A stretch of DNA of 64,000 nucleotides, from the NCBI RefSeq assembly GCF_048403405.1, contig NZ_CP183129.1; one strand, given 5' to 3'. Of the stretch, positions 1 to 62,712 are shown piece after piece. The stretch comes from Escherichia coli. GTDB lineage: Bacteria; Pseudomonadota; Gammaproteobacteria; Enterobacterales; Enterobacteriaceae. Numbering within the stretch: the stretch's first letter is position 1; every line of letters starts with the position of its first letter. Under the pieces are notes generated by a model. It searched no databases. It was not told the origin of the DNA and worked only from the letters and a program-made list of their open reading frames with translations. The position numbers were made by a program, and so were the translations under genes.

Positions 1-627
1 AAATTGCTGATGAACGGCACGTAAAGCGGCGACATGCTCATTGCTGCGGTCGCCGGAGTTCCCCACCAGAATGGTCATTTTTCCTTCACGTTGCCGATCG
101 TTCGCCATCGTATTGAGAGAAGGGTCCATCCGCGTCGGGAAGTACAGCAGTTCTCCCCGCACCTTTGGGTGCGTTTTGGCAAAAAAGCTCAAATCGCCGC
201 GGGTGGCAAATACACAGCCGACTCGCTTTTGCGCCAGGCGACGTAGTGGGTAAAAAAGCTTATATCTCAAGCCACTGGAAAGCTCATACAGGTCTGCCCC
301 CCAGATATGCCAGAAAAACTGGCTGGGCTTAATGCCACCACTCAGCAGAGCCAGCCACAGTGTGGGATTGAACTGACCGTGGAAAAAAAATCGCTGCTGA
401 CGGTTAGCTTTTGCTTTCGCGATGACCGCTTCCGCCAGCGATTTTTTCCCAGGGAAAAATTGCACAGAAAGCGCCGGACAGCTATCACTTAAGCCGTCGT
501 CCTTGCCAACAACCATAAACTCGCGCGCGTGCTCGCTCGTCGCAGCCAGCGCGTCATTGAAAAACCGCAAAACGGTTCGGTTATGGTGAGGGATATCCGA
601 TCCCAGTACGTGAATCAGTACAGTCAT
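1..627 (-). CDS. wecF: TDP-Fuc4NAc:lipid II transferase WecF (5' part; gene continues past window start)
   Basis: Minus-strand frame reads M-T-V-L from ATG at 625-627 and ...[20 protein letters not shown] at the window edge; ATGA overlap with wzxE stop; expected position in wec cluster. Confidence 0.8.
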
Positions 628-1874
628 GCCCGCCTACGCCAGAGTAAAAACACGCCACAACAAAGAGAAAAATAGACGATATAGGTTGCCATATAGGCCT
701 GCGCCGCGCCCAGTGCACCATGCGCAGGGATTAGCCAGTGGGCAAATACCATCAATAAAGTGAACTGGCTGACTTCCGCCAGAATATAAAACCGCAGTGA
801 CGCTTTGGCGATCACCAGATAACCAAAGACATAAGCGCCCACTTTTAACACATCACCCACTAACTGCCAGGCAAAGAGATCGCGCATAGCGGTAAATTTA
901 TTCGACAACAGCAGCCAGATAGCAAAATCACGCAGCAACCAGACGGTAAAACTCGCCGCCGCCACTGCCGGTAAGACAAATTTCAGCGATTTAACCACTT
1001 CCCGGGTGATATCGCGCTTTTCCGTTAGCCGCGACAACGTGGGCAGCAAATATACGCTGAACGATGCCGTAATAAATTGCAGGTAGGCATCGGAAATACT
1101 ACTCACCCCTTGCCAGATCCCCACTTCATCCCAGCTATACTGCGCCGCCAGCAGTTTACGCATCATGATGTAAGCAACGGGCAAGGTCACCGACGTAATC
1201 AACGCCATGAGCGTAAATTTGCTCAACTGCCCTGCCAGGCCGTTATCCCAGCTGGGTTTCAGATAGCTTAACGGGATTGCACCACGCTTAATTAGCATGA
1301 TGACGGCAGGAATCACCACCAGCGCGGGAATCAACGCCAGCCCCAGCAACGCCCCTTCATAACCGCCCAAACGGTAACTGACGTAGTACGCGAGAACGCC
1401 AATCAGGCTGCCGACAATCAGGGATAACGCATTACCTGCGGCATCGCGAAAGCCTTTCATCAACGCCAGTAACAGGTTGCCCCAGGCAATCCCCATTTGC
1501 ACCAGCGCCACTAAACGCACCAGTCCCTGATAGTCGGTATTACCAAACAATCCCTGGCTGATTGGCGCTGCTGCCAGCACAAAAACCAGCGCCATTAGCG
1601 TAGAGAAGCCAAGTACCATCGCTGATGAAGTGCCGACCACGCGGCGCAGCTGTTGGGGATTATCATGGTACTGAGCAACGTATTTGGTTACGCCATTAAA
1701 GATGCCAGCCCCGGCAAGCACGCCGAGCACGGTAATCAACTGGCGGAAATTTGCCGCCAGCCCAAGCCCCGCCGGACCAAATGACACCGCCAGCAACTTA
1801 CCGACCAGTAACCCGGCACCAATCTTGACCAGTGTACTGGCCGCCGTCCACAAGGACGCTTTTGCCAACGACAT
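624..1874 (-). CDS. wzxE: ECA lipid III flippase WzxE
   Basis: 416-aa ORF, multi-pass hydrophobic protein matching WzxE; ATG at 1872-1874; stop overlaps wecF start. Confidence 0.9.
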
Positions 1875-1875
1875 A

Positions 1876-3006
1876 TCAGGAGAAGTAGTTCAACAAAGTC
1901 GCAATTACCGTACGCTGATTGACGGGCGACAGGTTGTAGAACAGCGGCAGGCGCAGCAGGCGCTCACTCTCTTTGGTGGTGTAGCGATCTTCACCGTGGA
2001 ACTCACCAAAGCGTTCCCCCGCAGGGCAACCGTGCAGCGGAATGTAATGGAACACCGCCATGATTTCCGCTTCTTTCAGAAAGTTAATCAACGCGCTCCG
2101 GTCATCAATATCCCGCAGTTTAATGTAGAACATATGCGCGTTCTGCACGCAGCCATCGGGAATCGACGGCAGCTCGATACGCCCGGCTTTCGCCAGAGGT
2201 GCTAACGCATCGTAGTAGTTTTGCCACAGCGCCAGACGTTGCTGATTGATACGATCTGCTGCTTCCAGTTGCGCCCACAGGTACGCAGCTTGCAGATCGG
2301 ACATCAAATAGCTGGAGCCGATATCGCGCCAGGTATATTTATCGACCTGACCACGGAAGAACTGGCTGCGGTTTGTGCCTTTTTCACGGATGATCTCGGC
2401 TCGTTCGATCAACGCTTTATCGTTAATCAGCGTCGCGCCGCCTTCACCGCCCGCCGTGTAGTTTTTGGTTTCATGGAAGCTAAAGCAGCCAATATGACCA
2501 ATGGTTCCCAGTGCACGCCCTTTGTAAGTGGACATCACGCCCTGAGCAGCATCTTCCACCACAAACAGATTATGCTTTTTCGCCAACGCCATAATGGTGT
2601 CCATTTCGCAGGCCACACCCGCGTAATGGACCGGCACGATAACGCGCGTTTTGTCGGTGATCGCTGCTTCAATCAACGTTTCGTCGATGTTCATGGTGTC
2701 CGGGCGAACATCCACAAAAACGATTTTTGCGCCACGCAGCACAAAGGCATTGGCAGTGGAGACAAAGGTGTAGCTCGGCATGATCACTTCATCGCCAGGC
2801 TGGATATCGAGCAGCAGCGCCGCCATCTCCAGCGAAGCGGTGCAGGACGGCGTCAGTAACACTTTGGCGCTGCCAAAACGTTGCTCCAGCCACTGCTGGC
2901 AGCGACGGGTAAAACCGCCATCGCCACACAGTTTGCCACTACCCATTGCCGACTGCATATAGTCGAGTTCGGTTCCCACCACCGGCGGTGCGTTAAATGG
3001 AATCAT
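1876..3006 (-). CDS. wecE: dTDP-4-keto-6-deoxy-D-glucose aminotransferase WecE
   Basis: 376-aa ORF starting MIPFNAPPVVGTELDYM; DegT/aminotransferase-like; ATG at 3004-3006. Confidence 0.92.
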   Translation of the reverse strand: MIPFNAPPVVGTELDYMQSAMGSGKLCGDGGFTRRCQQWLEQRFGSAKVLLTPSCTASLEMAALLLDIQPGDEVIMPSYTFVSTANAFVLRGAKIVFVDVRPDTMNIDETLIEAAITDKTRVIVPVHYAGVACEMDTIMALAKKHNLFVVEDAAQGVMSTYKGRALGTIGHIGCFSFHETKNYTAGGEGGATLINDKALIERAEIIREKGTNRSQFFRGQVDKYTWRDIGSSYLMSDLQAAYLWAQLEAADRINQQRLALWQNYYDALAPLAKAGRIELPSIPDGCVQNAHMFYIKLRDIDDRSALINFLKEAEIMAVFHYIPLHGCPAGERFGEFHGEDRYTTKESERLLRLPLFYNLSPVNQRTVIATLLNYFS

Positions 3007-3010
3007 GTGA

Positions 3011-3685
3011 TCACCTGTATAACCAGTACGCGGTGCTTTCTACATTCGCACCACTTTGTATGTATCGTTTTAGCGCGGCGGTGTTGCCCATTTGGGTCGC
3101 CACCCGCAAAGTTGTTTTACCGCGAGCATACGCCCAGTTTAGCGCCGTTTGCATCAGCTCAGCACCTGCACCTCGTCCAGCCAGCAGGCCAATTCGCGCA
3201 TCTGTCGCATTGAGTTCCCGTAAAGAGACATAGCCGCGAATATCGCCGGACGCCGCACGTAAAATCAGACATTGATGATCAAAGGTGCCGCGCACGGCAT
3301 TTTCAATCCACTGTGCATAAAAGCGTCCGCTGGCGTCAGGCGCATACCACGGCGCACGAAAACGGCTTTGCGCAAATGCGGCGCTGGCTAACTGACGTAA
3401 TGCGGGAATATCGGTCTCTTGTGCCACTACAGCACCACTATCACTGACATTGTTCACGGGTAGCGCCAAATCAACTTCACCTTCTACCAGGGAGAATCCC
3501 AGCTGTTGCAGGGCATCCAGTTCACCCGTATTTGATGCCGCAATTTTGGCCTGTACCCGTGACCACGGCGCTAAGGCGTCTGACGTCAGGAGCGGTGCTT
3601 CAGGCGTGATGCGCACGATGGCGCTGTTAACACCAAAGAAGGCGTTTTCCCAGGTTAGTGGCTCAATACTGGCGCGGAAGGGCAC
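3011..3685 (-). CDS. wecD: dTDP-fucosamine acetyltransferase WecD
   Basis: 224-aa ORF with GTG start at 3683-3685; C-terminal GNAT-like region; 23-nt overlap with rffH 3' end. Start choice uncertain. Confidence 0.8.
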
Positions 3686-4544
3686 GAAGTAACTCCAGCA
3701 GATATTGGCCGTAGCCAGTTTTCGCCAGCGAGCTGGCGGCGCGCTTCACGCCTTCGTCATCAAGCCAGCCGTTACGCCAGGCGATCTCTTCCAGGCAGGC
3801 AATCTTAAAGCCCTGGCGTTTTTCCACCGTCTGTACAAAGGTGCTGGCTTCAATCAGGCTGTCGTGAGTGCCAGTATCCAGCCAGGCAAATCCGCGCCCG
3901 AGCAGTTCAACGGTCAGGTTGCCCGCCTCGAGGTACATCTGGTTGATGGAGGTAATCTCCAGTTCACCACGCTCCGACGGCTTCACCAGCTTTGCGTACT
4001 CCACGACTTTACTGTCGTAGAAATAAAGCCCGGTCACCGCCCAGTTTGACTTCGGCTGTTTTGGCTTTTCTTCCAGCGAGATAGCGCGGAAATTGTCGTC
4101 AAACTCCACGACGCCAAAGCGTTCCGGATCCATCACCTGATAGCCAAATACCGTCGCGCCTTGCGTGCGCGCCGCAACATGACGCAACTTCGGACTGAAG
4201 CCCTGTCCGAAGAAGATGTTATCGCCCAGCACCAGACAAGAAGGTTCACCGTTGAGGAAGGTTTCACCGATGATAAAGGCCTGCGCCAGACCGTCCGGAC
4301 TGGGCTGTTCGGCATATTCCAGCTGGATACCGAACTCACTACCATCGCCCAGCAGGCGCTGGAAATAACCTTTATCTTCCGGCGTAGTGATGATGAGAAT
4401 TTCGCGGATACCGGCCAGCATCAGCACCGACAGCGGATAGTAAATCATTGGCTTATCGTAAATCGGCAACAGTTGCTTCGATACGCCGCGCGTAATCGGA
4501 TGCAATCGGGTGCCGGAACCGCCCGCCAGGATAATACCTTTCAT
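3663..4544 (-). CDS. rffH: glucose-1-phosphate thymidylyltransferase RffH
   Basis: 293-aa [21 protein letters not shown]... (nucleotidyltransferase G-x-G-T-R motif); ATG at 4542-4544. Confidence 0.93.
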
Positions 4545-4562
4545 GTTTGCCTCCGCTGAAAA

Positions 4563-5630
4563 TTAGCCTTTCAGACCTAAACGCTCGCCCTGATAGCTGC
4601 CGTCCTGCACCTGCTTCCACCAGCTTTCATTAGCCAGATACCACTGCACCGTTTTACGCATTCCACTTTCAAAGGTTTCCTGCGGCAGCCAGCCAAGTTC
4701 ATGGACAATTTTCGAAGCATCAATGGCATAACGCAGATCATGCCCCGGACGGTCAGCGACAAAGGTGATCAGGTCACGATAGTGCGCCACGCCGTGCGGC
4801 TTGTTCGGAGCCAGTTCTTCCAGCAGCTCGCAAATGGTTTCCACAACATCGAGATTCTTACGCTCGTTGTGACCACCAATATTATAGGTTTCACCGACTT
4901 TCCCGGTGGTCGCTACGCAATACAGCGCACGGGCGTGATCTTCAACATACAGCCAGTCACGGATTTGCTGCCCGTTGCCATATACCGGCAGCGGTTTACC
5001 CGCCAGCGCGTTGAGGATCATCAGCGGGATCAGTTTTTCCGGAAAGTGGTAAGGGCCGTAGTTATTCGAGCAGTTGGTGATAAGCGTCGGCAGACCATAG
5101 GTCCGCAGCCAGGCGCGTACCAGATGGTCGCTGCTGGCTTTTGAAGCGGAATAAGGGCTGCTCGGCGCATACGGCGTGGTTTCGGTGAAGAAATCATCCG
5201 TCGAGTGCAGGTCACCATATACTTCGTCGGTGGAAATATGATGAAAACGGAACGCTGATTTTTTATCTTCCGTCAGCGCATTCCAGTAAGTCCGCGCCGC
5301 TTCAAGCAATGTATAAGTCCCGACAATGTTGGTTTCAATAAACGCTGCCGGGCCGTCAATAGAACGGTCAACATGGCTTTCGGCTGCCAGATGCATGACA
5401 CAGTCTGGCTGATGCTCAGTGAATACGCGCGCCAGTTCTGCCCGACCGCAGATATCAACTTTCTCAAAGGCAAAGCGCTCGCTTTGCGCGACCGGTGCCA
5501 GCGACATCAGATTTCCGGCGTAGGTCAGCTTATCGACCACTATCACCGCGTCGCTCGTTTCGTTGATGATATAACGCACCAGCGCTGAGCCAATAAACCC
5601 GGCACCACCTGTTATCAGAATCTTTCTCAT
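4563..5630 (-). CDS. rffG: dTDP-glucose 4,6-dehydratase RffG
   Basis: ORF-track frame; canonical start [15 protein letters not shown] (Rossmann NAD motif) at ATG 5628-5630, 355 aa; track ORF begins at upstream TTG. Confidence 0.92.
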
Positions 5631-6892
5631 CAGCGCCAAACTCCTTTGGCATCGACGACATACTGCTGATGGACATTGTCGCCATTGATAACTTTGAACT
5701 GACTATGATCGACCAGCATCACCAGCACGTCTGCCGTTGCCAGCGCCTCGTCAAGCTGCGCCAGTGTACAAAGCCCGGTCAGTTTTTTCGGCAACTGGTG
5801 GATGTTAGGCTCAACAACCAGCGTTTCGCCGCTGTGCCACTGGGCGATCAGTTCAGCGATTTCCATCGCCGGGCTTTCGCGCAGGTCATCAATATTCGGT
5901 TTAAACGCCAGACCAAAGCAGGCGATTTTCAGTTCACTGGCGCGTTTATCGGTAGCAGCAAGGCAGTCGGCAACCGCCGCTTTCACCTGATCGATAACCC
6001 AGAACGGTTTGTGATCGTTCACTTCGCGCGCAGTACGGATAAGCCGCGCCTGCTGGGGGTTCTGTGCCACGATAAACCACGGATCAACAGCGATGCAGTG
6101 ACCGCCCACGCCAGGGCCAGGCTGAAGAATATTGACGCGAGGGTGGCGATTCGCCAGGCGAATCAGTTCCCAGACGTTAATTCCCTGATCGGCACAAATC
6201 AGCGACAGTTCGTTAGCAAAAGCGATATTCACATCGCGGAAGCTGTTTTCGGTGAGCTTACACATTTCCGCCGTCCGCGAGTTAGTGACGACACACTCAC
6301 CTTCGAGGAAAATTTTGTACAGTTCGCTGGCGCGGGCCGAACAAACCGGCGTCATACCACCAATCACGCGATCGTTTTTAATCAGCTCGACCATTACCTG
6401 GCCCGGTAACACGCGTTCCGGGCAGTAAGCAATGTTGACGTCCGCCTGCTCGCCCACCTGCTGCGGGAAAGTGAGATCTGGACGCATCTCTGCTAACCAT
6501 TCTGCCATCTTCTCGGTTGACCCCACCGGCGAGGTGGATTCAAGGATCACCAGCGCGCCTTTTTTCAGCACTGGCGCAATGGAGCGAGCAGCCGATTCAA
6601 CGTAGGTCATATCTGGCTCATGATCGCCTTTAAACGGCGTGGGTACAGCAATCAGCCAGGCATCCGCTTCAACTGGCGTCGTGCTCGCTCGTAAAAAACC
6701 GCCTTCTACGGCAGTTTTTACTACGCTCGCCAAATCAGGTTCGACGATATGGATTTCGCCACGATTGATGGTATCAACCGCATGTTTGTTGATATCGACA
6801 CCAATCACCTGTTTTTGCCGAGAGGCAAACGCAGCTGCTGTAGGCAGCCCGATGTAACCCAGTCCGATAACAGAAATGGTCGCAAAACTCAT
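5630..6892 (-). CDS. wecC: UDP-N-acetyl-D-mannosamine dehydrogenase WecC
   Basis: 420-aa [25 protein letters not shown]...; ATG at 6890-6892; 1-nt overlap with rffG start. Confidence 0.93.
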
Positions 6893-8019
6893 AGTGATAT
6901 CCGATTATTTTTTAACGCTTCCAGAATGCGAGAGCATGCCTGACCATCACCATACGGGTTATGGGCGCGGCTCATAGCTTGATATTCGTTTTCGTCTTTT
7001 AAAAGACGCGTCACTTCCTCGACAATTCGCTGCTTATCCGTGCCTACCAGACGCACCGTACCCGCCGTCACCGCTTCCGGACGCTCAGTGGTATCGCGCA
7101 TTACCAGCACCGGTTTCCCCAGCGAAGGCGCTTCTTCCTGAATGCCGCCTGAGTCGGTCAAAATCAGCCAGGCGTGGTTCATCAGCCAGACAAACGGTAA
7201 ATACTCCTGGGGATCGATCAGAATGACATTTTTCACGTGCCCCAGAATGCGATTGACCGGCTCTCTGACGTTCGGGTTGAGATGCACTGGATAGACAATC
7301 TGGATGTCCTGGTGCGTGGTGGCGATGTCTGCCAGCGCATGGCAGATTTCTTCAAAGCCACGACCGAAGCTCTCACGCCTGTGACCGGTCACCAGAATCA
7401 TTTTTTTATTGGGGTCGATAAACGGGTAATTTGCCGCCAGTTCTGAACGCAGCGTATCGCTGCTCATCACCTGGTCACGCACCCATAACAGTGCATCAAT
7501 AACTGTATTACCGGTAATGAAGATTCGGCTGTCAGCAACATTTTCACGCAGCAAGTTTTGCCGGGAAGTTTCGGTTGGAGAGAAGTGATACATCGCCAGA
7601 TGCCCGGTCAATGTACGGTTAGCCTCTTCCGGCCACGGCGAATAGAGATCGCCCGTGCGCAGACCAGCCTCAACGTGACCAACAGGAATACGCTGATAAA
7701 ACGCCGCCAGGCTGGTTGCCAGCGTCGTCGTAGTATCGCCGTGAACCAGCACGACGTCTGGTTTGAACTCGGCAAGAATTGGTTTTAGCCCTTCCAGAAT
7801 CCGACAGGTTATCTCTGTCAGGCCCTGTCCTGGCTGCATTATGTTGAGATCGTAGTCAGGTACAATGGAAAAGAGTTTCAGCACCTGATCGAGCATCTCC
7901 CGATGCTGCGCAGTGACGCAAACTTTAGCCTCAAAAAAAGGATCTTTTGCCAACGCATGCACCAACGGAGCCATCTTGATGGCTTCCGGGCGCGTACCAA
8001 ATACAGTCAGTACTTTCAC
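6889..8019 (-). CDS. wecB: UDP-GlcNAc 2-epimerase WecB
   Basis: ORF frame 6889-8061; canonical N-terminus (M)[19 protein letters not shown] corresponds to GTG at 8017-8019 (376 aa); upstream in-frame GTG at 8061 is the alternative. Confidence 0.88.
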
Positions 8020-8074
8020 ATCGATTCTCTTCGAATAAGCGGCGAGCGCCTTTGCGCTCACCGCAGCAGTGTTG

Positions 8075-9121
8075 CTATTTCGAGCAACGGCGGGTTAATG
8101 CGACACCAGCCCCGATCAGCCCCCCGACAATGCCCCACATAATCATCAGGAAGGCACGACGTGGGCTATCGCGTTTTACCGGTTCTTCCGGCGTACGCAA
8201 ATAGCGATAGGTCTGAAAACGCGGATCCAGGGTTGGACCAACATTCAGGGTGTTTAACATGGCCCGATTCTGATCATAGTCGAGATCAAAGGCCGGACCG
8301 ACGGCCTGTAAATTTTCCAGTCGAGCCTGGAGCATTGGACGCCCAAGCAGGAACATTTCTGAATCAGGCAATTCCTCGGCAGGCACATCTGTCGCACTGC
8401 GCGAAATATTATGCTGCTCAGCAATTTTCAGCGCCTGTTCAATACTGTTCATCCGGCGGTCGTAGATGGCTTTCGCCACCTCTTCCTGACGCTTCACCTG
8501 TGCTTTCATCTGGATGGTACGCGCCGCCCATGCGCCTTTCAGCTCATCATTCAGATGGCTGGCTGCACGCTGGCTGGCAAAAGCAACATACTGACGTAAC
8601 AGGTTATTAGCGTCAGGCGCGGTTTCGGCAATCAGCTTCACGCTGTCATTGATCGCGCGGGTAAAGTCTCCGGGGATAAACTGGATGTTGTTGATCATTT
8701 CATCCAGCAACGCCGCATCGGCTTTGCTGTTGCCCACCATCCGCTGCTTGTAATAGTCGGTTTGCAGCCAGAACTCTCTGCGGGTATCCCACGAGGCCAG
8801 TTGCATAACAAACTCTTTATAGGCTTCGTCCATGACCGATGGTTGGTCGGCAGAAGCCATGTTTGAACGGACATCCAGGTTACGCAAAAATTGCTGCTGT
8901 GAGTAATATCCCCCCAGCATATTCACCGTTGGACGATCGGTAATCGCCGTCGAGCTCCACTCCTGACGAGCAAAAAAAGTATACGCCAGCGCGATTAACG
9001 CAAACGCCAGCCCCATGCCAATAATCCATAGCTTCCCAGCCCACAAGGTACGAAACAACCCACGAATATCCAGTTCATTTTCAGCGTCTTCGGCCGGTTT
9101 CCCAGGCATTGGTTGTGTCAT
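8075..9121 (-). CDS. wzzE: ECA polysaccharide chain-length modulator WzzE
   Basis: 348 aa from ATG at 9119-9121 ([18 protein letters not shown]...); two predicted TM segments flanking a periplasmic domain. Confidence 0.92.
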
Positions 9122-9132
9122 CACATCCTCAT

Positions 9133-10236
9133 TTATTTGGTTAAATTGGGGCTGCCACCACGATTTCTACGCAGTCTGCGTTTTACGCGCTTAATAAAGC
9201 GAGCAACTTTCCAGGCACGCTTAATGCAATATCCATAGAGGAAGAATGCTAGCAAAAAGAGCACCAGCATGACCCACTCCGGGACAAAATGAGAATATTC
9301 TGCCAGCACCCCAATGGAGGCGAGCAGAGCTGCGGCAAGGGTAATCAGCACAAACGCCTGGCGGGAAGTAAACCCGGCACGCATGATCAAATGGTGAATA
9401 TGCTGGCGATCAGGAGAGAACGGACTCATGCCTTTACGCAGGCGACGGTACATAATCGCCACCATATCCATTAGCGGAATGGCGATTATCCACAAAGCGG
9501 TAACCGGGCTGATGGGATGGGTTTTGCCCTGGGTCGTTTCGAGCAGGATCCAGATAACGGTAAAACCAATCAGCGTACTGCCCGCATCACCCATAAAGAC
9601 TTTGTAGCGGCGACCCAGGATACCAAGGTTAAGCATGATGTATGGCAGGATGGCGGCGATCATCGCAAAACACCAGATTGCAAGGCTGGTTTGCCCGTCG
9701 AACCACAAAATCATACCGATTGCTGCAAACGAGACGCAGGACAACCCGCCCAGCAAGCCATCAATGCCATCAACCATGTTGAACGCATTAATGGCCGCCC
9801 AGACGGCAAATAGCGTCAGGAAGTAGCCAAACGGTCCGAGCACCATCTCCCAGGAGCCAAAGATATAACCCAGGCTACTGAGATAAAGTTTGCCGAACAC
9901 CATCATAACAATGCCAACAGCGGCCTGTATGGTGGCACGGATTTTTACGCTGATATCAAAACGGTCATCCAGCGCGCCAATGAAAACAAGCACACCGGCA
10001 CAAGCGAGATAGAGAGATGCATGCGGAATATAGTAATCGACAATTCCGAACGTGAAGCAAATCCCTGCGTAGACCGAAATCCCCCCAACGAGAGGTATCA
10101 ATCCCTGGTGACGTTTGCGGAAGTTAGGTTTATCCACTAAACCGACTTTTTTTGCCACCTTACGGGCAAAAAACAGAAACAGTGTCGTGAATAAAAAAAT
10201 ACTGATGAGATCAGTACTCACTGTCAGTAAATTCAC
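9133..10236 (-). CDS. wecA: UDP-GlcNAc:undecaprenyl-phosphate GlcNAc-1-phosphate transferase WecA
   Basis: 367-aa polytopic membrane ORF MNLLTVSTDLISIF...; GTG start at 10234-10236. Confidence 0.92.
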   Translation of the reverse strand: MNLLTVSTDLISIFLFTTLFLFFARKVAKKVGLVDKPNFRKRHQGLIPLVGGISVYAGICFTFGIVDYYIPHASLYLACAGVLVFIGALDDRFDISVKIRATIQAAVGIVMMVFGKLYLSSLGYIFGSWEMVLGPFGYFLTLFAVWAAINAFNMVDGIDGLLGGLSCVSFAAIGMILWFDGQTSLAIWCFAMIAAILPYIMLNLGILGRRYKVFMGDAGSTLIGFTVIWILLETTQGKTHPISPVTALWIIAIPLMDMVAIMYRRLRKGMSPFSPDRQHIHHLIMRAGFTSRQAFVLITLAAALLASIGVLAEYSHFVPEWVMLVLFLLAFFLYGYCIKRAWKVARFIKRVKRRLRRNRGGSPNLTK

Positions 10237-10409
10237 AATGCATGCTCTCAGAGAAAAATATTAGCAGAAGTATAACCACGAAGGCCATTATTCAGAAGGG
10301 AAACTCTGCTCTGAACCCACCAACCTTGTGCAAAAAAAAACCACGTGATTCGTGTTATGCGCAATAAACAAACATAACTCGTATTTGTTATAACGCCGTT
10401 AAGATTACA

Positions 10410-10450
10410 GATATAAAAACAAAACGCCACGTAAACACGTGGCGTTTTTG
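10410..10450 (-). terminator. Rho-independent terminator downstream of rho
   Basis: 12-bp perfect stem aaaacgccacgt/acgtggcgtttt (10421-10448) followed on the minus strand by a T-run. Confidence 0.8.
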
Positions 10451-10463
10451 GCATAAGACAAAT

Positions 10464-11723
10464 TTATGAGCGTTTCATCATTTCGAAGAAATCGTCATTG
10501 GTCTTGGTCATTGCCAGTTTATTAATGAGGAATTCCATTGCATCGATTTCGCCCATCGGGTGAATGATTTTGCGCAGGATCCACATTTTCTGCAGTTCTT
10601 CCTGAGTAGTGAGCAGCTCTTCTTTACGGGTACCGGAACGGTTGTAGTCGATTGCCGGGAAGACGCGTTTTTCAGCGATCTTACGAGAGAGGTGCAGTTC
10701 CATGTTGCCTGTACCTTTAAACTCTTCGTAGATAACTTCGTCCATCTTGGAACCGGTATCGATAAGCGCGGTAGCGATGATGGTCAGGCTGCCGCCCTCT
10801 TCCACGTTACGCGCCGCACCGAAGAAGCGTTTCGGACGATGCAGGGCGTTGGCATCCACACCACCGGTCAGCACTTTACCTGACGCCGGAACAACGGTGT
10901 TGTAAGCGCGCGCCAGACGAGTGATGGAGTCGAGCAGAATGATAACGTCTTTCTTGTGCTCAACCAGGCGTTTCGCCTTCTCGATCACCATTTCCGCAAC
11001 CTGAACGTGGCGAGATGCGGGTTCGTCAAAGGTAGAAGCAACAACTTCACCTTTAACCAGACGCTGCATCTCGGTTACTTCTTCCGGACGTTCGTCGATC
11101 AGCAGAACCATCAGTACGCAATCCGGGTGGTTGTAAGCAATGCTCTGAGCAATGTTCTGCAGCAGCATGGTTTTACCGGCTTTCGGCGGTGCCACAATCA
11201 GACCACGCTGACCACGACCGATAGGTGATGCCAGATCCAGTACGCGAGCGGTTAAATCTTCCGTAGAACCGTTACCACGTTCCATACGCAGACGAGAGTT
11301 TGCGTGCAGCGGGGTTAAGTTCTCAAAGAGGATTTTGTTGCGGGCGTTTTCAGGTTTGTCGAAGTTAACTTCGTTAACTTTCAGCAGCGCAAAATAGCGT
11401 TCACCTTCTTTCGGCGGGCGAATCTTACCAGAGATGGTATCACCAGTGCGGAGGTTGAAACGGCGGATTTGGCTAGGGGAAACGTAGATGTCATCAGGAC
11501 CGGCGAGGTAGGAGCTGTCTGCGGAACGGAGGAAACCAAATCCATCCTGCAATATCTCCAGTACGCCATCACCAAAGATATCTTCGCCACTCTTTGCGTG
11601 CTGCTTCAGGATGGCAAAAATAATGTCCTGCTTACGCATACGAGCCAGGTTTTCCAGCCCCATATTTTCGCCGAGAGTGATCAGCTCAGAAACCGGCGTA
11701 TTCTTTAATTCGGTAAGATTCAT
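10464..11723 (-). CDS. rho: transcription termination factor Rho
   Basis: 419 aa from ATG at 11721-11723 ([40 protein letters not shown]...); Walker A GKTMLL; track ORF carries a 24-codon upstream extension. Confidence 0.97.
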
Positions 11724-11807
11724 AGTGGTGTGAGTTCTTAAACTTGGGGTAAATCTCGAACTTAATGTTGTGAATGGTATGGCAGGATCATCCATGCCTG
11801 TTTACGG

Positions 11808-11909
11808 TCATCGACTCATGTCTTTTCGCTGCCTGGTCACAGGAGAGTACGCAGAACTGAAACGACAAGACGGATTGAGTGACAAACCAGAAATCTGTTC
11901 ACTTCGCAT
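11808..11909 (-). CDS. rhoL: rho operon leader peptide RhoL
   Basis: 33-codon minus-strand ORF translated by hand: MRSEQISGLSLNPSCRFSSAYSPVTRQRKDMSR, immediately upstream of rho. Confidence 0.75.
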   Translation of the reverse strand: MRSEQISGLSLNPSCRFSSAYSPVTRQRKDMSR

Positions 11910-12047
11910 TAGATAAAACGGGAAGCGTTGGATATTACAAGATTCAAACTTAATAAGGTAAGTTTAATACGAAGTCAACATTAAGTTAGCATGGCTCACG
12001 CCGGGCGTCCAGTTTTTAGCGACGGGGCACCCGAACATGAAATTCCC

Positions 12048-12377
12048 TTACGCCAGATTAGCGTCGAGGAACTCTTTCAACTGACCTTTAGACAGTGCGC
12101 CCACTTTGGTTGCCGCCACTTCACCGTTTTTGAACAGTAGCAGAGTCGGGATACCGCGGATGCCATATTTCGGCGCAGTGCCAGGGTTTTGATCGATGTT
12201 CAGTTTTGCAACGGTCAGTTTGCCCTGATATTCGTCAGCGATTTCATCCAGAATCGGGGCGATCATTTTGCACGGACCGCACCACTCTGCCCAGAAATCG
12301 ACGAGGATCGCCCCGTCCGCTTTGAGTACATCCGTGTCAAAACTGTCGTCAGTCAGGTGAATAATTTTATCGCTCAT
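12048..12377 (-). CDS. trxA: thioredoxin 1
   Basis: 109 aa from ATG at 12375-12377 ([47 protein letters not shown]...); WCGPC active site. Confidence 0.97.
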
Positions 12378-12507
12378 ATTTAACTCCACAGGAATAAGCC
12401 TGGCGTGTTGGTTTCGTTGTTGGTGTAACATTAACCAACTAAAGGTTGACTTTATTTCACCGGATACGCTTTCGTAAAGCAATAGTAAGCTGATATTCTA
12501 CCACACT

Positions 12508-17677: not shown

Positions 17678-18127
17678 GTGGCGATTAATTTCAGCCCCAA
17701 GGTTGGTGAAATACTGGAATGCAACTTTGGTAACTATCCTGTTAGCCAGAATGGACAGTTCAGCACGACGTATTACGATGGCCGCATTCCACCTGAGATG
17801 ATAAAAAATAGGTTGGTTGTCGTGCTCAACGGAAAAATTAATGGCAACGCATGTATCGTCGTTCCATTATCAACCACTCGCGACCATGACAAGTTAAATC
17901 GTGGAATGCATGTTGAAATAGCCAGTAATGTTATCAATGACATGCATTTCTTTGATCAGCAGATACGTTGGGCTAAAGCCGACCTGGTACAACAAGTCAG
18001 TCGAAACCGATTAAACAGAGCAAGGACTTATCGGGGGTATCTTAATCAATGTTTGCCACATGAGTTGGTTGCAGACATACAGAGGGCAGTCATCAAGTCA
18101 ATCAATGCCATATCGCTCATAAATTGA
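17678..18127 (+). CDS. yifN: PemK/MazF-like toxin-family protein (yifN-like), intact
   Basis: ORF-track frame 17636-18127; best start is GTG 17678 preceded by SD taaggagagg (17661-17670); sequence VAINFSPKVGEILECNF...RLVVVLNG...CIVVPLSTT resembles the PemK/MazF fold pattern; visibly A+T-rich relative to flanks. Confidence 0.6.
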   Translation: MAINFSPKVGEILECNFGNYPVSQNGQFSTTYYDGRIPPEMIKNRLVVVLNGKINGNACIVVPLSTTRDHDKLNRGMHVEIASNVINDMHFFDQQIRWAKADLVQQVSRNRLNRARTYRGYLNQCLPHELVADIQRAVIKSINAISLIN

Positions 18128-47611: not shown

Positions 47612-49108
47612 ATGGCTCACCCTCATTTATTAGCGGAAAGAATTTCCCGCCTGAGCAGTTCGTTGGAAAAGGGGCTTTATGAACGTAGCCACGCCATCCG
47701 CTTGTGTTTATTAGCGGCATTAAGTGGTGAAAGTGTGTTCCTCCTTGGCCCGCCAGGCATTGCCAAAAGTTTGATCGCCCGGCGCTTAAAATTCGCCTTT
47801 CAGAATGCCCGCGCGTTTGAATATCTGATGACCCGCTTCTCCACGCCGGAAGAGGTTTTTGGTCCCCTTTCTATTCAGGCGCTAAAAGATGAAGGGCGCT
47901 ATGAACGTTTAACCAGCGGTTACCTGCCGGAAGCAGAAATCGTCTTTCTGGATGAGATCTGGAAAGCGGGCCCGGCAATTCTTAATACCTTGCTCACCGC
48001 CATTAACGAGCGCCAGTTCCGCAACGGTGCACACGTAGAAAAAATCCCGATGCGCCTGCTGGTGGCGGCCTCCAACGAGCTGCCGGAAGCAGACAGCAGT
48101 CTGGAAGCGTTATATGACCGCATGCTGATTCGTCTGTGGTTAGATAAAGTGCAGGATAAAGCGAATTTCCGCTCCATGCTGACCAGTCAACAGGATGAAA
48201 ACGACAATCCGGTTCCTGCCTCCTTGCAGGTCACAGATGAAGAATATGAACGCTGGCAGAAAGAGATTGGTGAAATTACGCTGCCCGATCATGTATTTGA
48301 GCTGATTTTTATGCTGCGCCAGCAACTGGATAAATTACCGGATGCGCCTTATGTCTCGGATCGTCGCTGGAAAAAAGCGATTCGATTATTGCAGGCCAGC
48401 GCCTTTTTTAGCGGTCGCAGTGCTGTTGCCCCGGTTGATCTCATTTTGCTGAAAGATTGCCTGTGGTATGACGCGCAAAGCCTGAATTTGATACAACAAC
48501 AAATTGATGTATTGATGACCGGTCATGCCTGGCAACAGCAAGGGATGTTGACCCGTCTGGGCGCGATTGTGCAACGTCACCTGCAACTCCAGCAGCAACA
48601 AAGCGATAAAACAGCCTTAACGGTAATTCGTCTGGGCGGCATTTTCAGCCGTCGTCAGCAGTATCAACTTCCTGTTAACGTTACTGCTTCCACTCTGACT
48701 CTGCTGCTGCAAAAACCGTTAAAATTGCATGATATGGAAGTGGTTCATATCTCCTTTGAGCGTAACGCGCTGGAACAGTGGCTGAGTAAAGGTGGTGAAA
48801 TTCGCGGCAAACTGAACGGTATCGGCTTTGCCCAGAAACTGAATCTGGAAGTTGATAGTGCCCAACATCTTGTTGTACGCGATGTAAGTTTACAAGGCAG
48901 TACGCTGGCACTTCCCGGTTCATCGGCTGAAGGTCTGCCAGGTGAAATAAAACAACAACTGGAAGAGCTTGAAAGCGACTGGCGCAAGCAACACGCTTTA
49001 TTCAGCGAACAGCAAAAATGTCTGTTTATCCCTGGCGACTGGTTAGGTCGCATTGAAGCCAGCCTACAGGATGTCGGCGCACAGATTCGCCAGGCACAAC
49101 AATGCTAA
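47612..49108 (+). CDS. ravA: MoxR-family AAA+ ATPase RavA
   Basis: 498 aa from ATG 47612 ([53 protein letters not shown]...); Walker A and B present. Confidence 0.95.
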
Positions 49109-55024: not shown

Positions 55025-55648
55025 GTGCTCAACAAACTCACCTCTCTGCTGAAAGACGCAGGAATTTCGCTTACCGATCACCAGAAAAACCAGCTAATTG
55101 CCTACGTGAATATGCTGCATAAATGGAATAAAGCGTACAACCTGACTTCGGTCCGCGATCCTAATGAGATGCTGGTACGCCATATTCTCGATAGCATTGT
55201 GGTGGCACCGTATCTGCAAGGTGAACGGTTCATCGATGTCGGCACCGGACCAGGACTGCCTGGCATTCCACTCTCTATCGTGCGTCCTGAAGCCCATTTC
55301 ACGTTGTTGGATAGCCTTGGTAAACGCGTGCGTTTCCTTCGTCAGGTGCAACATGAGCTTAAACTGGAGAATATTGAGCCAGTACAGAGCAGGGTAGAAG
55401 AGTTTCCTTCAGAGCCGCCATTTGATGGCGTAATTAGCCGCGCTTTTGCCTCTCTGAACGATATGGTGAGCTGGTGTCACCATCTTCCTGGTGAGCAAGG
55501 CCGTTTCTACGCGCTGAAAGGCCAAATGCCGGAAGATGAAATCGCTTTGTTGCCCGAAGAATATCAGGTCGAATCAGTGGTTAAACTTCACGTTCCGGCC
55601 CTGGATGGCGAACGTCATCTGGTGGTGATTAAAGCAAATAAAATTTAA
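55025..55648 (+). CDS. rsmG: 16S rRNA m7G527 methyltransferase RsmG (GidB)
   Basis: 207-aa ORF (GTG start at 55025) ...[41 protein letters not shown]...; SAM motif [10 protein letters not shown]. Confidence 0.95.
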
Positions 55649-56145
55649 TTTTTATCAAAAAAATCATAAAAAATTGACCGGTTAGACTGTTAACAACAAC
55701 CAGGTTTTCTACTGATATAACTGGTTACATTTAACGCCACGTTCACTCTTTTGCATCAACAAGATAACGTGGCTTTTTTTGGTAAGCAGAAAATAAGTCA
55801 TAAGTGAAAATATCAGTCTGCTAAAAATCGGCGCTAAGAATCATCATTGGCTGTTAAAACATTATTAAAAATGTCAATGGGTGGTTTTTGTTGTGTAAAT
55901 GTCATTTATTAAAACAGTATCTGTTTTTAGACTGAAATATCATAAACTTGCAAAGGCATCATTTGCCAAGTAAATAAATATGCTGTGCGCGAACATGCTC
56001 AATATGTGATCTGAAGCACGCTTTATCACCAGTGTTTACGCGTTATTTACAGTTTTTCATGATCGAACAGGGTTTGCAGAAAAGTCGCAATTGTATGCAC
56101 TGGAAAAATATTTAAACATTTATTCACCTTTTGGCTACTTATTGT

Positions 56146-56173
56146 TTGAAATCACGGGGGCGCACCGTATAAT
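56146..56173 (+). promoter_or_regulatory. atp operon promoter (sigma70 -35/-10)
   Basis: ttgaaa (56146-56151), 16-nt spacer, tataat (56168-56173), about 90 nt upstream of atpI. Confidence 0.65.
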
Positions 56174-56264
56174 TTGACCGCTTTTTGATGCTTGACTCTA
56201 AGCCTTAAAGAAAGTTTTATACGACACGCGGCATACCTCGAAGGGAGCAGGAGTGAAAAACGTG

Positions 56265-57469
<1,205 letters not shown>

Positions 57470-57497
57470 TTTACCAACACTACTACGTTTTAACTGA

Positions 57498-57772
<275 letters not shown>

Positions 57773-57816
57773 TAAAGAGCAATATCAGAACGTTAACTAA
57801 ATAGAGGCATTGTGCT

Positions 57817-58287
57817 GTGAATCTTAACGCAACAATCCTCGGCCAGGCCATCGCGTTTGTCCTGTTCGTTCTGTTCTGCATGAAGTACGTATGGCCGCCA
57901 TTAATGGCAGCCATCGAAAAACGTCAAAAAGAAATTGCTGACGGCCTTGCTTCCGCAGAACGAGCACATAAGGACCTTGACCTTGCAAAGGCCAGCGCGA
58001 CCGACCAGCTGAAAAAAGCGAAAGCGGAAGCCCAGGTAATCATCGAGCAGGCTAACAAACGCCGCTCGCAGATTCTGGACGAAGCGAAAGCTGAGGCAGA
58101 ACAGGAACGTACTAAAATCGTGGCCCAGGCGCAGGCGGAAATTGAAGCCGAGCGTAAACGTGCCCGTGAAGAGCTGCGTAAGCAAGTTGCTATCCTGGCT
58201 GTTGCTGGCGCCGAGAAGATCATCGAACGTTCCGTGGATGAAGCTGCTAACAGCGACATCGTGGATAAACTTGTCGCTGAACTGTAA
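57817..58287 (+). CDS. atpF: F0 ATP synthase subunit b
   Basis: 156-aa ORF, GTG start at 57817; (M)[43 protein letters not shown]... Confidence 0.96.
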
Positions 58288-58301
58288 GGAGGGAGGGGCT
58301 G

Positions 58302-58835
58302 ATGTCTGAATTTATTACGGTAGCTCGCCCCTACGCCAAAGCAGCTTTTGACTTTGCCGTCGAACACCAAAGTGTAGAACGCTGGCAGGACATGCTGGCG
58401 TTTGCCGCCGAGGTAACCAAAAACGAACAAATGGCAGAGCTTCTCTCTGGCGCGCTTGCGCCAGAAACGCTCGCCGAGTCGTTTATCGCAGTTTGTGGTG
58501 AGCAACTGGACGAAAACGGTCAGAACCTGATTCGGGTAATGGCTGAAAATGGTCGTCTTAACGCGCTCCCGGATGTTCTGGAGCAGTTTATTCACCTGCG
58601 TGCCGTGAGTGAGGCTACCGCTGAGGTAGACGTCATTTCCGCTGCCGCACTGAGTGAACAACAGCTCGCGAAAATTTCTGCTGCGATGGAAAAACGTCTG
58701 TCACGCAAAGTTAAGCTGAATTGCAAAATCGATAAGTCTGTAATGGCAGGCGTTATCATCCGAGCGGGTGATATGGTCATTGATGGCAGCGTACGCGGTC
58801 GTCTTGAGCGCCTTGCAGACGTCTTGCAGTCTTAA
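58302..58835 (+). CDS. atpH: F1 ATP synthase subunit delta
   Basis: 177-aa [41 protein letters not shown]... Confidence 0.96.
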
Positions 58836-58847
58836 GGGGACTGGAGC

Positions 58848-60389
58848 ATGCAACTGAATTCCACCGAAATCAGCGAACTGATCAAGCAGCGCATTGCTCA
58901 GTTCAATGTTGTGAGTGAAGCTCACAACGAAGGTACTATTGTTTCTGTAAGTGACGGTGTTATCCGCATTCACGGCCTGGCCGATTGTATGCAGGGTGAA
59001 ATGATCTCCCTGCCGGGTAACCGTTACGCTATCGCACTGAACCTCGAGCGCGACTCGGTAGGTGCGGTTGTTATGGGTCCGTACGCTGACCTTGCCGAAG
59101 GTATGAAAGTTAAGTGTACTGGCCGTATCCTGGAAGTTCCGGTTGGCCGTGGCCTGCTGGGCCGTGTGGTTAACACTCTGGGTGCACCAATCGACGGTAA
59201 AGGTCCGCTGGATCACGACGGCTTCTCTGCTGTAGAAGCAATCGCTCCGGGCGTTATCGAACGTCAGTCCGTAGATCAGCCGGTACAGACCGGTTATAAA
59301 GCCGTTGACTCCATGATCCCAATCGGTCGTGGTCAGCGTGAATTGATCATCGGTGACCGTCAGACCGGTAAAACCGCACTGGCTATCGATGCCATCATCA
59401 ACCAGCGCGATTCCGGTATCAAATGTATCTATGTCGCTATCGGCCAGAAAGCGTCCACCATTTCTAACGTGGTACGTAAACTGGAAGAGCACGGCGCACT
59501 GGCTAACACCATCGTTGTGGTAGCAACCGCGTCTGAATCCGCTGCACTGCAATACCTGGCACCGTACGCTGGTTGCGCAATGGGCGAATACTTCCGTGAC
59601 CGCGGTGAAGATGCGCTGATCATTTACGATGACCTGTCTAAACAGGCTGTTGCTTACCGTCAGATCTCCCTGCTGCTCCGTCGTCCGCCAGGACGTGAAG
59701 CATTCCCGGGCGACGTATTCTACCTCCACTCTCGTCTGCTGGAGCGTGCTGCGCGTGTTAACGCCGAATACGTTGAAGCCTTCACCAAAGGTGAAGTGAA
59801 AGGGAAAACCGGTTCTCTGACTGCGCTGCCGATTATCGAAACTCAGGCGGGTGACGTTTCTGCGTTCGTTCCGACCAACGTAATCTCCATTACCGATGGT
59901 CAGATCTTCCTGGAAACCAACCTGTTCAACGCCGGTATTCGTCCTGCGGTTAACCCGGGTATTTCCGTATCCCGTGTTGGTGGTGCAGCACAGACCAAGA
60001 TCATGAAAAAACTGTCCGGTGGTATCCGTACCGCTCTGGCACAGTATCGTGAACTGGCAGCGTTCTCTCAGTTTGCATCCGACCTTGACGATGCAACACG
60101 TAAACAGCTTGACCACGGTCAGAAAGTGACCGAACTGCTGAAACAGAAACAGTATGCGCCGATGTCCGTAGCGCAACAGTCTCTGGTTCTGTTCGCAGCA
60201 GAACGTGGTTACCTGGCGGATGTTGAACTGTCGAAAATCGGCAGCTTCGAAGCCGCTCTGCTGGCTTACGTCGACCGTGATCACGCTCCGTTGATGCAAG
60301 AGATCAACCAGACCGGTGGCTACAACGACGAAATCGAAGGCAAGCTGAAAGGCATCCTCGATTCCTTCAAAGCAACCCAATCCTGGTAA
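58848..60389 (+). CDS. atpA: F1 ATP synthase subunit alpha
   Basis: 513-aa [37 protein letters not shown]...; Walker A GDRQTGKT. Confidence 0.98.
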
Positions 60390-60439
60390 CGTCTGGCGGC
60401 TTGCCTTAGGGCAGGCCGCAAGGCATTGAGGAGAAGCTC

Positions 60440-62712
<2,273 letters not shown>

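Follow-up and report, generated by a model that had tools for sequence, protein, structure and literature searches.

Conserved gene junctions in the wec/rff ECA operon of Escherichia coli are typical of operons and probably combine reinitiation with independent initiation

Termination-reinitiation (TeRe) coupling at ATGA and TGATG sites, with trpB-trpA and atpH-atpA as the classic pairs, is the closest described system for the gene junctions considered here (Huber et al. 2019, PMC6728339; 2023, PMC10666635). In E. coli, experiments with other native pairs have demonstrated it for −4 and −1 overlaps; its efficiency drops sharply with distance, and the final 15 nt of the upstream cistron are enough (PMC6728339, PMC10666635). 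Of the native −4 pairs of Huber et al., four out of five were coupled while bioBF was not (PMC6728339), which means that the geometry alone is no proof of coupling. The distances −4 and −1 are the commonest in all prokaryotes, and 707 of 2987 unidirectional E. coli pairs (24%) lie in the range −8 to +6 (PMC10666635). A literature search found no published experiments on any wec junction.

The window analyzed here is a stretch of 64,000 nucleotides of E. coli chromosome, of which positions 1-12000 are 100% identical to E. coli GN02461. The minus strand at 1-10236 carries the wec/rff ECA operon, from wecA through the 5' part of rffT, recognizable by the Enterobacterales order wecA-wzzE-wecB-wecC-rffG-rffH-rffC-rffA-wzxE-rffT directly downstream of rho; the 100% identity to annotated E. 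coli bears out the earlier assignment of the cluster to ECA. In the RefSeq annotation the genes are wecA (rfe; 9133-10236), which is the first of the operon, the chain-length regulator wzzE (8075-9121), the UDP-GlcNAc 2-epimerase wecB (6889-8019, with a GTG start also read from the sequence), the UDP-ManNAc dehydrogenase wecC (5630-6892), the dTDP-glucose 4,6-dehydratase rffG (4563-5630), the rmlA paralogue rffH (3663-4544, named rfbA in RefSeq), the acetyltransferase rffC (wecD; 3011-3685, GTG start), the transaminase rffA (wecE; 1876-3006), the lipid III flippase wzxE (624-1874) and the 5' part of rffT (wecF; 1-627, ATG start at 627), cut by the window edge. WecB is the enzyme common to ECA and the phage-N4 receptor glycan. 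The operon has been listed as rfe...rffM (PMC5927463), and its distal genes wzyE and rffM (wecG) lie outside the window, which begins inside rffT. This order recurs in 80 Enterobacteriaceae loci, 42 of which lack rffGH. Like the O-antigen (rfb) and capsule clusters, this is a long polysaccharide operon that contains rmlA/rmlB paralogues and numerous short overlaps; unlike them, it has native GC content (0.49-0.57 across 1-10236), a gene content that is invariant except for rffGH, and no JUMPStart/ops element.

We now turn to the individual junctions, whose distances (in nt; negative for overlaps, positive for spacers) were taken straight from the sequence. Conservation was scored among 80 Enterobacteriaceae species, all with at least 86% WecC identity. 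At wecB>wecC the two genes share an ATGA (6889-6892, −4), a distance that is kept in 80/80 loci with 58 distinct junction sequences among them, and the SD of wecC is weak (−3.3 kcal/mol). At rffA>wzxE, the arrangement is TGAtATG (1872-1878), with the single spacer nucleotide 1875 (+1; 73 of 76 loci). The wzxE gene is without a Shine-Dalgarno sequence (+0.4 kcal/mol), which makes this junction the best candidate for obligatory reinitiation. Another ATGA is present at wzxE>rffT (624-627, −4; 75 of 76 Enterobacteriaceae loci), where the SD-like AGGCGG upstream of rffT is weak to moderate (−6.2 kcal/mol).

Three other junctions have their SD inside the upstream gene. The TGATG of wecC>rffG (5628-5632) gives a −1 overlap at 5630, and the AAGGAG 10 nt upstream of rffG, inside wecC, has an energy of −8.2 kcal/mol; across species, 18 loci share this distance and 20 have −4 (TTGA/GTGA) instead. 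The rffH>rffC overlap of −23 (GTGCCCTTCCGCGCCAGTATTGA, 3663-3685), with its GTG start, is found in 35 of the 36 rffH-bearing loci. Here, the SD of rffC is the GGAG at 3693-3696, within the Leu-Glu codons of rffH, and the C-terminus of RffH (14 residues) is almost invariant. At rffC>rffA (3007-3016) the spacer is +4 (3007-3010; 75 of 78 loci), the anti-SD-complementary AGGTGATC at 3009-3016 spans the rffC TGA stop, and ACAGGTGA is conserved at 90% or more in the aligned loci. Two short spacers remain. That of wecA>wzzE (+11, 9122-9132, SD GAGGA) fits the E. coli junction class called "+10 nt" (PMC10666635) and varies between 11 and 23 nt among species. That of rffG>rffH (+18, 4545-4562), with the strong SD GGAGG (−9.5 kcal/mol), varies between 3 and 33 nt, apart from one locus with 227 nt, and the junction has the sequence characteristics of the independent-initiation type. 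The SD energies computed here are in line with the aSD column in PMC5318159. On the plus strand, ravA>viaA overlaps by −7 (ATGCTAA, 49102-49108). All junctions listed in the preliminary description are indeed present (624-627, 1875, 3663-3685, 5630, 6889-6892 and 49102-49108), and the coordinates that it gave are right. The tight coupling it saw across the cluster holds for six of the nine wec junctions and not for the rest, and four junctions (+4, +11, +18 and +55) had gone unmentioned.

The tight junctions are nearly invariant in the 80 species, with 46-68 distinct sequences per junction at unchanged distances, while the spacers drift in length. Since the loci are all from Enterobacteriaceae at the WecC identity given above, part of this invariance is shared ancestry and dual-coding constraint. 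In the 42 species without rffG-rffH, the new wecC>rffC junction is −4 in 22 and −1 in 2, and spans −4 to +78 overall. Five of the nine wec junctions (−4, −1, +4, +1 and −4) fall in the −8 to +6 class, with −23, +11, +18 and +55 outside it. Compared to the genome-wide 24%, this gives a binomial P of 0.039; compared to the 20 other operon-like pairs in the window (at most 65 nt apart), the difference is not significant, with P=0.24 for the −8 to +6 class and P=0.056 for overlaps. The junctions do follow a real pattern, though one that is typical of operons. The packing of the ECA operon is already known biology, and the overlaps, which had been described as not novel, are ordinary for bacterial operons.

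The translation output could be compared using the K-12 ribosome profiling of Burkhardt et al. 2017 (PMC5318159, Supplementary file 1), in which wzxE and rffT are absent from the table. The densities of the other eight genes are 95.6 for wecA, 80.6 for wzzE, 138.3 for wecB, 166.9 for wecC, 110.8 for rffG, 62.8 for rffH, 24.5 for rffC and 130.0 for rffA, that is, a 6.8-fold range. The upstream:downstream ratios are 1:1.2 (1.21) for wecB:wecC, 1:0.66 for wecC:rffG, 1:0.39 for rffH:rffC and 1:5.3 for rffC:rffA. The first two are compatible with reinitiation. The downstream flux is within the limit set by the upstream gene at wecC>rffG and rffH>rffC, borderline at wecB>wecC and exceeded at rffC>rffA, where reinitiation alone is impossible and de novo initiation at rffA has to take place. 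The slight excess of wecC over wecB cannot come from pure reinitiation either, and thus reflects noise or some de novo initiation despite the weak SD. Translation efficiency (TE) does not track SD strength in the operon, as rffH with the strongest SD has a TE of 0.35 and rffA one of 1.10; TE has been attributed mainly to ORF-wide mRNA structure (PMC5318159). The mRNA is continuous across the wec genes, with abundances that drop ca 2-fold from wecA to rffA (247 to 118, PMC5318159) and a fall of 35% from rffH to rffC, across the overlap.

Taken together, we consider it likely that 3663-8019 is the core of a polycistronic wec/rff mRNA with mixed, ordinary junction types, at which reinitiation and independent initiation are combined. 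At wecB>wecC, rffA>wzxE and wzxE>rffT, where genes overlap or abut and there is little or no SD, we infer from the sequence that reinitiation of the terminating ribosome at the neighboring start is most likely; translation of the downstream gene would then depend on that of the upstream one and could not exceed it. At wecC>rffG, rffH>rffC and rffC>rffA, with a usable SD within the upstream gene, reinitiation and de novo 30S loading would both contribute, the latter dominating at rffA. The short spacers and strong SDs of wecA>wzzE and rffG>rffH point to independent initiation, and wecB is predicted to start de novo at its GUG, in an invariant purine-rich leader behind a hairpin. Overall, the genes would be co-expressed to within roughly a factor of ten, each with an output of its own and not at 1:1, from an mRNA that is continuously translated. 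The likeness to the TeRe pairs lies in the same −4/−1/+1 geometry, the polycistronic mRNA, an SD embedded upstream or absent, and conserved distances. The −23 junction, however, is outside the −8 to +6 range of that class, and rffA has a higher output than rffC, so that coupling is not the chief source of rffA translation.

The spacer between wzzE and wecB (8020-8074) is the only one in the operon of at least 25 nt; it measures 55 nt here and 55-62 nt across species. It contains, on the minus strand at 8039-8064, a stem-loop with an 11-bp stem, GCGGUGAGCGC-AAAG-GCGCUCGCCGC, which begins 10 nt past the stop of wzzE and lacks a U-tract. The fold z-score is −3.7, while RNA structure at the tight junctions is unremarkable (z between −1.6 and +1.2). 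Compensatory changes occur in 8/8 pairs, 91% of the cells are paired, and none of 500 shuffles reaches the observed values. Such a stable, conserved hairpin shortly past the stop resembles the ribosome termination structures (RTS) of Chemla et al. 2020 (PMC7518266), and its presence only in the spacer longer than 25 nt, with none at the tight junctions, matches their rule. However, RTS function was demonstrated only in a synthetic operon, and a role in mRNA stability or processing is just as conceivable for this hairpin. The mRNA falls only 10% across it. By analogy, it probably insulates wecB against reinitiation. The GTG start of wecB sits inside AUGUGA (8016-8021), with an SD energy of −2.9 kcal/mol, and wecB has been named among atGTG genes without SD (PMC9841429). 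As at the ambiguous AUGUGA/GUGUGA start sites of that work, the GUG of AUGUGA is used as the start. The difference is that in several species the upstream AUG becomes UUG, CUG or ACG while the GUG is invariant, which means that the start-stop AUGUGA is not a conserved requirement. In the literature consulted we found no description of the hairpin or of the invariant leader.

Other explanations of the overlaps have to be weighed. That they are annotation artefacts, with the real starts farther downstream, has a nearly negligible probability, although rffC and wecB have GTG starts and a TTG, as an alternative start of rffG, lies 9 nt upstream. The preliminary description had named re-annotated starts as what would remove the overlaps; on examination the starts are supported and the overlaps stay. 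Depending on the gene, 37-80 of the 80 species have the start codon at the aligned position, including all scored loci for wecC (ATG, 80/80), rffT (ATG, 76/76), wzxE (75/75) and rffA (77/77). The Rossmann GxGxxG motif is at residues 8-15 of the WecC and RffG translations, so these starts cannot move downstream. The rffC start is the same aligned codon in species lacking rffH, where nothing overlaps it, and the 224-aa WecD has been crystallized, the construct of 2FS5/2FT0 aligning from residue 2. The overlaps could instead be neutral by-products of operon compaction, arising when a stop codon is lost or a start codon drifts, and have no effect on expression. The prevalence of −4 and −1 in prokaryotes agrees with this, as do the similarity to the other operon-internal pairs in the window, the free switching of wecC>rffG between −1 and −4, and the wide range of distances once rffGH is lost. 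We nevertheless regard it as unlikely. Tight distances stay constant over many distinct sequences while spacers drift, wzxE without SD and wecC with a weak one need some initiation route, the wecC density being the highest of the operon, and coupling was seen in most of the comparable native pairs tested directly.

The preliminary description had taken the overlaps as consistent with stoichiometric co-expression. Short overlaps are indeed 4.5-fold enriched in E. coli pairs encoding heteromeric complexes (PMC10666635), the wecB:wecC:rffG densities are within 1.5-fold, and label-free proteomics gives 29-179 copies per cell for all products (PMC6544118, Table S3). The other overlaps in the window are ilvG/ilvM and ravA/viaA, which encode proteins that interact with each other. 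Still, we find it very improbable that the overlaps enforce ca 1:1 synthesis of the ECA enzymes, as the published ribosome densities, with their 6.8-fold range and the unequal rffH:rffC and rffC:rffA ratios, have already largely refuted it; the copy numbers are not equal either. Unlike complex subunits made in proportion, such as IlvGM, adjacent wec products are according to reviews separate enzymes, of two sugar-nucleotide branches, next to a flippase and a transferase; WecD, for instance, forms homodimers. A complex has been proposed only for Wzx/Wzy/Wzz, with WzzE:WzyE at 8:1 and the two genes not adjacent. Furthermore, 69.6% of E. coli pairs between −8 and +10 encode no complexes (PMC10666635), and the atp operon, in the same window, makes a fixed-stoichiometry complex without overlaps (gaps of 8-61 nt). 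One can also speculate that the gap-free junctions mainly shield the ca 13-kb operon, which has no RfaH/ops antitermination, from Rho-dependent premature termination (polarity). The ops element (GGCGGTAGNNTG) is absent from the wecA leader and the cluster, with 1-mismatch matches only elsewhere, the mRNA declines only modestly from wecA to rffA, and the one untranslated gap above 18 nt in ca 10 kb is filled by the stable hairpin. On the other hand, the 35% fall occurs across an overlap. This purely inferential proposal, which would be complementary to coupling, is in our view doubtful, with some chance of being correct. Less probable still, and in our judgment rather far-fetched, is that the geometries, instead of being generic packing, form a conserved tuned code for non-equimolar ratios (ATGA giving ca 1:1, the 23-nt overlap ca 0.4 and the SD over the rffC stop a 5-fold increase), with the hairpin and the invariant AAGAGAAUCGAUGUGAAAG leader as a dedicated control point of wecB translation, maybe targeted by an sRNA or a protein.

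In practical terms, gene overlap in the wec operon is not to be taken as evidence of equimolar enzymes. Deletions and insertions in the wec genes must keep the overlapping stop and start signals in order to avoid polar effects, and this matters most at wecB>wecC, rffA>wzxE and wzxE>rffT, whose downstream genes have little or no SD of their own. A mildly useful by-product of the analysis is the structurally conserved hairpin with the invariant leader before wecB.

The genes for biosynthesis of the enterobacterial common antigen (ECA) are found on the minus strand, with coordinates taken from the RefSeq annotation of the best-matching E. coli chromosome: wecA (9133-10236), wzzE (8075-9121), wecB (6889-8019), wecC (5630-6892), rffG (4563-5630), rffH (3663-4544), rffC/wecD (3011-3685), rffA/wecE (1876-3006), wzxE (624-1874) and rffT/wecF (1-627, truncated at the edge of the window). 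On the same strand rho lies at 10464-11723, and the remaining window contains ilv, an rrn operon, rbs, ravA-viaA, the oriC neighbourhood and the atp operon. The region 1-12000 is carried by 5425 of 5426 complete E. coli genomes, and several chromosomes are 100% identical to it. The operon has been listed with 12 genes, without junction-specific information (Dar & Sorek 2018 supplement, PMC5927463).

Every junction distance was read directly off the sequence. In transcription order, wecA and wzzE are separated by 11 nt, wzzE and wecB by 55 nt (8020-8074), wecB and wecC overlap by 4 nt (ATGA, 6889-6892), wecC and rffG by 1 nt (TGATG, 5630), rffG and rffH are 18 nt apart, rffH and rffC overlap by 23 nt with a GTG start (3663-3685), rffC and rffA are 4 nt apart, rffA and wzxE 1 nt (at 1875), and wzxE and rffT overlap by 4 nt (ATGA, 624-627). 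Elsewhere in the window, ravA and viaA overlap by 7 nt (ATGCTAA, 49102-49108). The overlaps and positions in the preliminary description, ravA/viaA included, are thus all correct. Its picture of tight coupling across the cluster is a slight overstatement, as it applies to the six of nine junctions that overlap or lie within 4 nt; the other three are two spacers bearing a Shine-Dalgarno (SD) sequence plus the structured 55-nt spacer.

Of the 2987 unidirectional pairs in E. coli, 707 (24%) have a distance of −8 to +6 nt; in prokaryotes generally, the distances met most often are −4 and −1 (PMC10666635). Five of the nine wec junctions fall in this range (binomial P=0.039 against the genome-wide 24%), the 23-nt overlap being extra. 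When the window's 20 other operon-like pairs serve as the reference, neither the −8 to +6 range (P=0.24) nor overlaps (P=0.056) are significantly enriched. The pattern is real, yet it is the normal look of operons.

The preliminary description had named re-annotated start codons as what would remove the overlaps. This does not occur. In 80 Enterobacteriaceae loci, fetched with WecC as query and with genes placed by tblastn and ORF extension, a start codon is found exactly at the E. coli-aligned position for wecC (80/80, ATG), rffT (76/76), wzxE (75/75) and rffA (77/77). The Rossmann GxGxxG motifs of WecC and RffG are at residues 8-15 of the translations, and these two starts can therefore not shift downstream. 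The least certain start is the GTG of rffC. In the 42 of 80 species where wecC adjoins rffC directly, the rffC start aligns with the E. coli one to within a single codon, for example as an ATG after a 33-nt spacer in Pseudocitrobacter, and the crystallised WecD (2FS5/2FT0) matches the 224-residue product. Wrong start codons are thus rejected, and the overlaps will survive re-annotation.

Other origins of the pattern were also considered. An internal transcription signal is rejected, as the consensus scan of 1-12000 gives none that explains the pattern: promoter-like sites number 5 against 10.8 in shuffles, terminator-like sites are somewhat commoner (23 vs 14.1), and the only convincing terminator is that of rho (10421-10448). 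No Rfam family matches inside the ECA cluster in a scan of the whole window, and the wec leader lacks the RfaH ops/JUMPStart element. The idea that RNA structure hides the downstream starts is likewise rejected, since no tight junction is more stably folded than its shuffled versions (z −1.6 to +1.2) or differs significantly from them; wecC/rffG has a small hairpin with GGAG in the loop and the AUG paired, with a z of only −1.4. Horizontal transfer of the cluster is rejected on the basis of its uniform GC content (0.49-0.57).

The tight distances are nearly invariant among the closest 80 species: −4 at wecB/wecC in 80/80 loci, −4 at wzxE/rffT in 75/76, +1 at rffA/wzxE in 73/76, +4 at rffC/rffA in 75/78 and −23 at rffH/rffC in 35/36. 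This holds over 46-68 distinct sequences per junction, the invariance being partly shared ancestry within one family, Enterobacteriaceae, with indels in dual-coding sequence doubly constrained. The wecC/rffG distance alternates, with 18 loci at −1 and 20 at −4. In species without rffGH, 22 loci again have −4 at the new wecC/rffC junction and 2 have −1. Spacer lengths drift across species (11-23 nt; 3-33 nt, with one locus at 227 nt; 55-62 nt). Within the 23-nt overlap the C-terminus of RffH (14 residues) is nearly fixed, and residue 2 of WecD is P, L, R, H or F.

Two further observations concern these genes. At position 3679 (minus-strand T; rffC codon 3, TTC) one substitution alters both overlapping proteins, giving WecD V3F and an R-to-L change five residues from the RffH C-terminus, which reads RALPRQY in this strain and is near-invariantly RARPRQY; this state is absent from all 35 other overlap-bearing loci compared. 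The rffG-rffH pair is missing between wecC and rffC in 42 of the 80 species (42 of loci L004-L083, including L013, L015, L017-L020, L022, L027, L028, L030, L035, L037, L039 and L040), namely in Enterobacter, Lelliottia, Leclercia and some Klebsiella, Raoultella and Citrobacter, patchily within genera. K. michiganensis and Raoultella retain a 78-nt remnant whose beginning is collinear with the 5' end of rffG, suggesting a scar left by deletion and not primary absence.

By its pairing energy (kcal/mol), the SD was found to be absent or weak for wzxE (+0.4), wecB (−2.9), wecC (−3.3) and rffA (−3.8 with the short anti-SD), moderate for rffC (−5.9), rffT (−6.2) and wzzE (−7.0), and strong for rffG (−8.2) and rffH (−9.5), and the energies match those in Burkhardt et al.'s aSD column (PMC5318159). 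The TGA stop of rffC is embedded in AGGTGATC (3009-3016, minus strand), complementary to the 16S rRNA 3' end and 2 nt ahead of the rffA ATG; ACAGGTGA is at least 90% conserved. In other native E. coli pairs, termination-reinitiation, where the terminating ribosome restarts at the adjoining start, couples four of five tested −4 overlaps, the upstream gene's final 15 nt are enough, and the efficiency is down by 40-80% at +14 nt and nearly gone at +38 nt (PMC6728339, PMC10666635). Taken together, these experiments and the SD energies would make wecB/wecC, rffA/wzxE and wzxE/rffT good candidates for reinitiation-dependent translation; de novo ribosome loading could be a further route for rffG, rffC and rffA, and initiation of wzzE and rffH would be independent. 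Translational coupling in the cluster is plausible; a literature search found no paper testing it in the wec operon.

The K-12 values of translation efficiency (TE), ribosome density and mRNA (Burkhardt et al. 2017, Supplementary file 1, PMC5318159) are 0.39, 95.6 and 247 for wecA, 0.31, 80.6 and 263 for wzzE, 0.59, 138.3 and 236 for wecB, 0.77, 166.9 and 217 for wecC, 0.55, 110.8 and 202 for rffG, 0.35, 62.8 and 180 for rffH, 0.21, 24.5 and 118 for rffC, and 1.10, 130.0 and 118 for rffA. Ribosome density is within 1.5-fold for wecB, wecC and rffG, and spans a 6.8-fold range over the eight genes. The rffH:rffC pair, with its 23-nt overlap, stands at 1:0.39, and rffA, with the highest TE of the operon and only 4 nt past rffC with the lowest, is translated 5.3 times more than the latter; reinitiation alone can therefore not give the rffA output. 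The mRNA is only ~2-fold lower at rffA than at wecA. We infer that continuous translation may help to protect the long operon, whose leader has no RfaH ops element, from Rho-dependent polarity. The 35% mRNA step from rffH to rffC and rffA falls at the 23-nt overlap (~3663-3700), a hint of partial termination, or of processing, close to the 3' end of rffH.

Protein levels in BW25113, as label-free copies per cell, are 179 for wecA, 126 for wzzE, 115 for wecB, 88 for wecC, 55 for rffG, 29 for rffH, 106 for wecE and 42 for wecF (PMC6544118, Table S3), that is, of the same order of magnitude and unequal. According to reviews, adjoining wec products are separate enzymes, the only defined complex being WzzE:WzyE (8:1), and 69.6% of E. 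coli pairs at −8 to +10 encode no complex (PMC10666635). All eight internal junctions of the atp operon (~55100-62450, plus strand) are gaps of 8-61 nt, without overlaps. Its products form a textbook complex of fixed, unequal stoichiometry, and the operon is an in-window counter-example to the notion that overlap means stoichiometry. The two non-wec overlaps in the window, ilvG/ilvM and ravA/viaA, do encode partner proteins. In view of the unequal densities and copy numbers, the separate enzymes and the atp operon, the earlier interpretation holds only in part: it is plausible as to coupling, and unsupported as to stoichiometric co-expression. The pattern had been called not novel, and rightly so, as textbooks cover both overlapping stop and start codons and translational coupling, and any annotation shows the wec overlaps, K-12 coordinates included. 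Genome-wide surveys of overlap and coupling already exist (PMC10666635). The observation is confirmed, and with an ordinary mechanism, already known biology and nothing departing from the known kind it is of low interest.

The wzzE-wecB spacer, the only long one, contains an 11-bp hairpin (stem 8039-8064, minus strand; fold z = −3.7). Its structure is conserved over 65 distinct Enterobacteriaceae sequences, with compensatory changes in 8/8 pairs and 91% of cells paired (slid controls 31-65%), values reached by 0/500 shuffles, and an invariant leader AAGAGAAT..GTGAAAGT lies 3' of it. A U-tract is lacking, and the K-12 mRNA level is only ~10% lower past the hairpin. 'Ribosome termination structures' are depleted at junctions under 25 nt and enriched at longer ones (PMC7518266), the same distribution as in the wec cluster, where the tight junctions show no such folding. 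The hairpin fits the description of such a structure, or could alternatively be a stability or processing element.

The wecB start is the GTG of AUGUGA (8016-8021, minus strand), so that an AUG-UGA start-stop overlaps the real start, and there is no SD of at least 4 nt. PMC9841429 already lists the gene among the AUGUG starts, and as lacking such an SD. All species compared keep the GTG, but several genera have TTG, CTG or ACG in place of the ATG upstream, so that the start-stop itself is not conserved.

Elsewhere in the window, an IS200C-family element lies between hdfR and tRNA-Trp (~30940-31638; tnpA ORF 31037-31546, minus strand), and an Rfam STnc490 match (31505-31628) is part of it. At this site the element is present in only 6 of 5426 complete E. 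coli genomes, and it is missing from the strain that best matches the wec region. Between rep and ppiC, the annotation has a toxin ORF of the PemK/MazF family (17678-18127, plus strand), with no adjoining antitoxin gene annotated in the RefSeq record. Rfam gathering-score matches on the minus strand are the TrxA 5'UTR thermometer (12348-12447), Rev39_5p_UTR over the ilv leader region (27455-27744) and the sRNA STnc410 between glmU and atpC (63263-63420).
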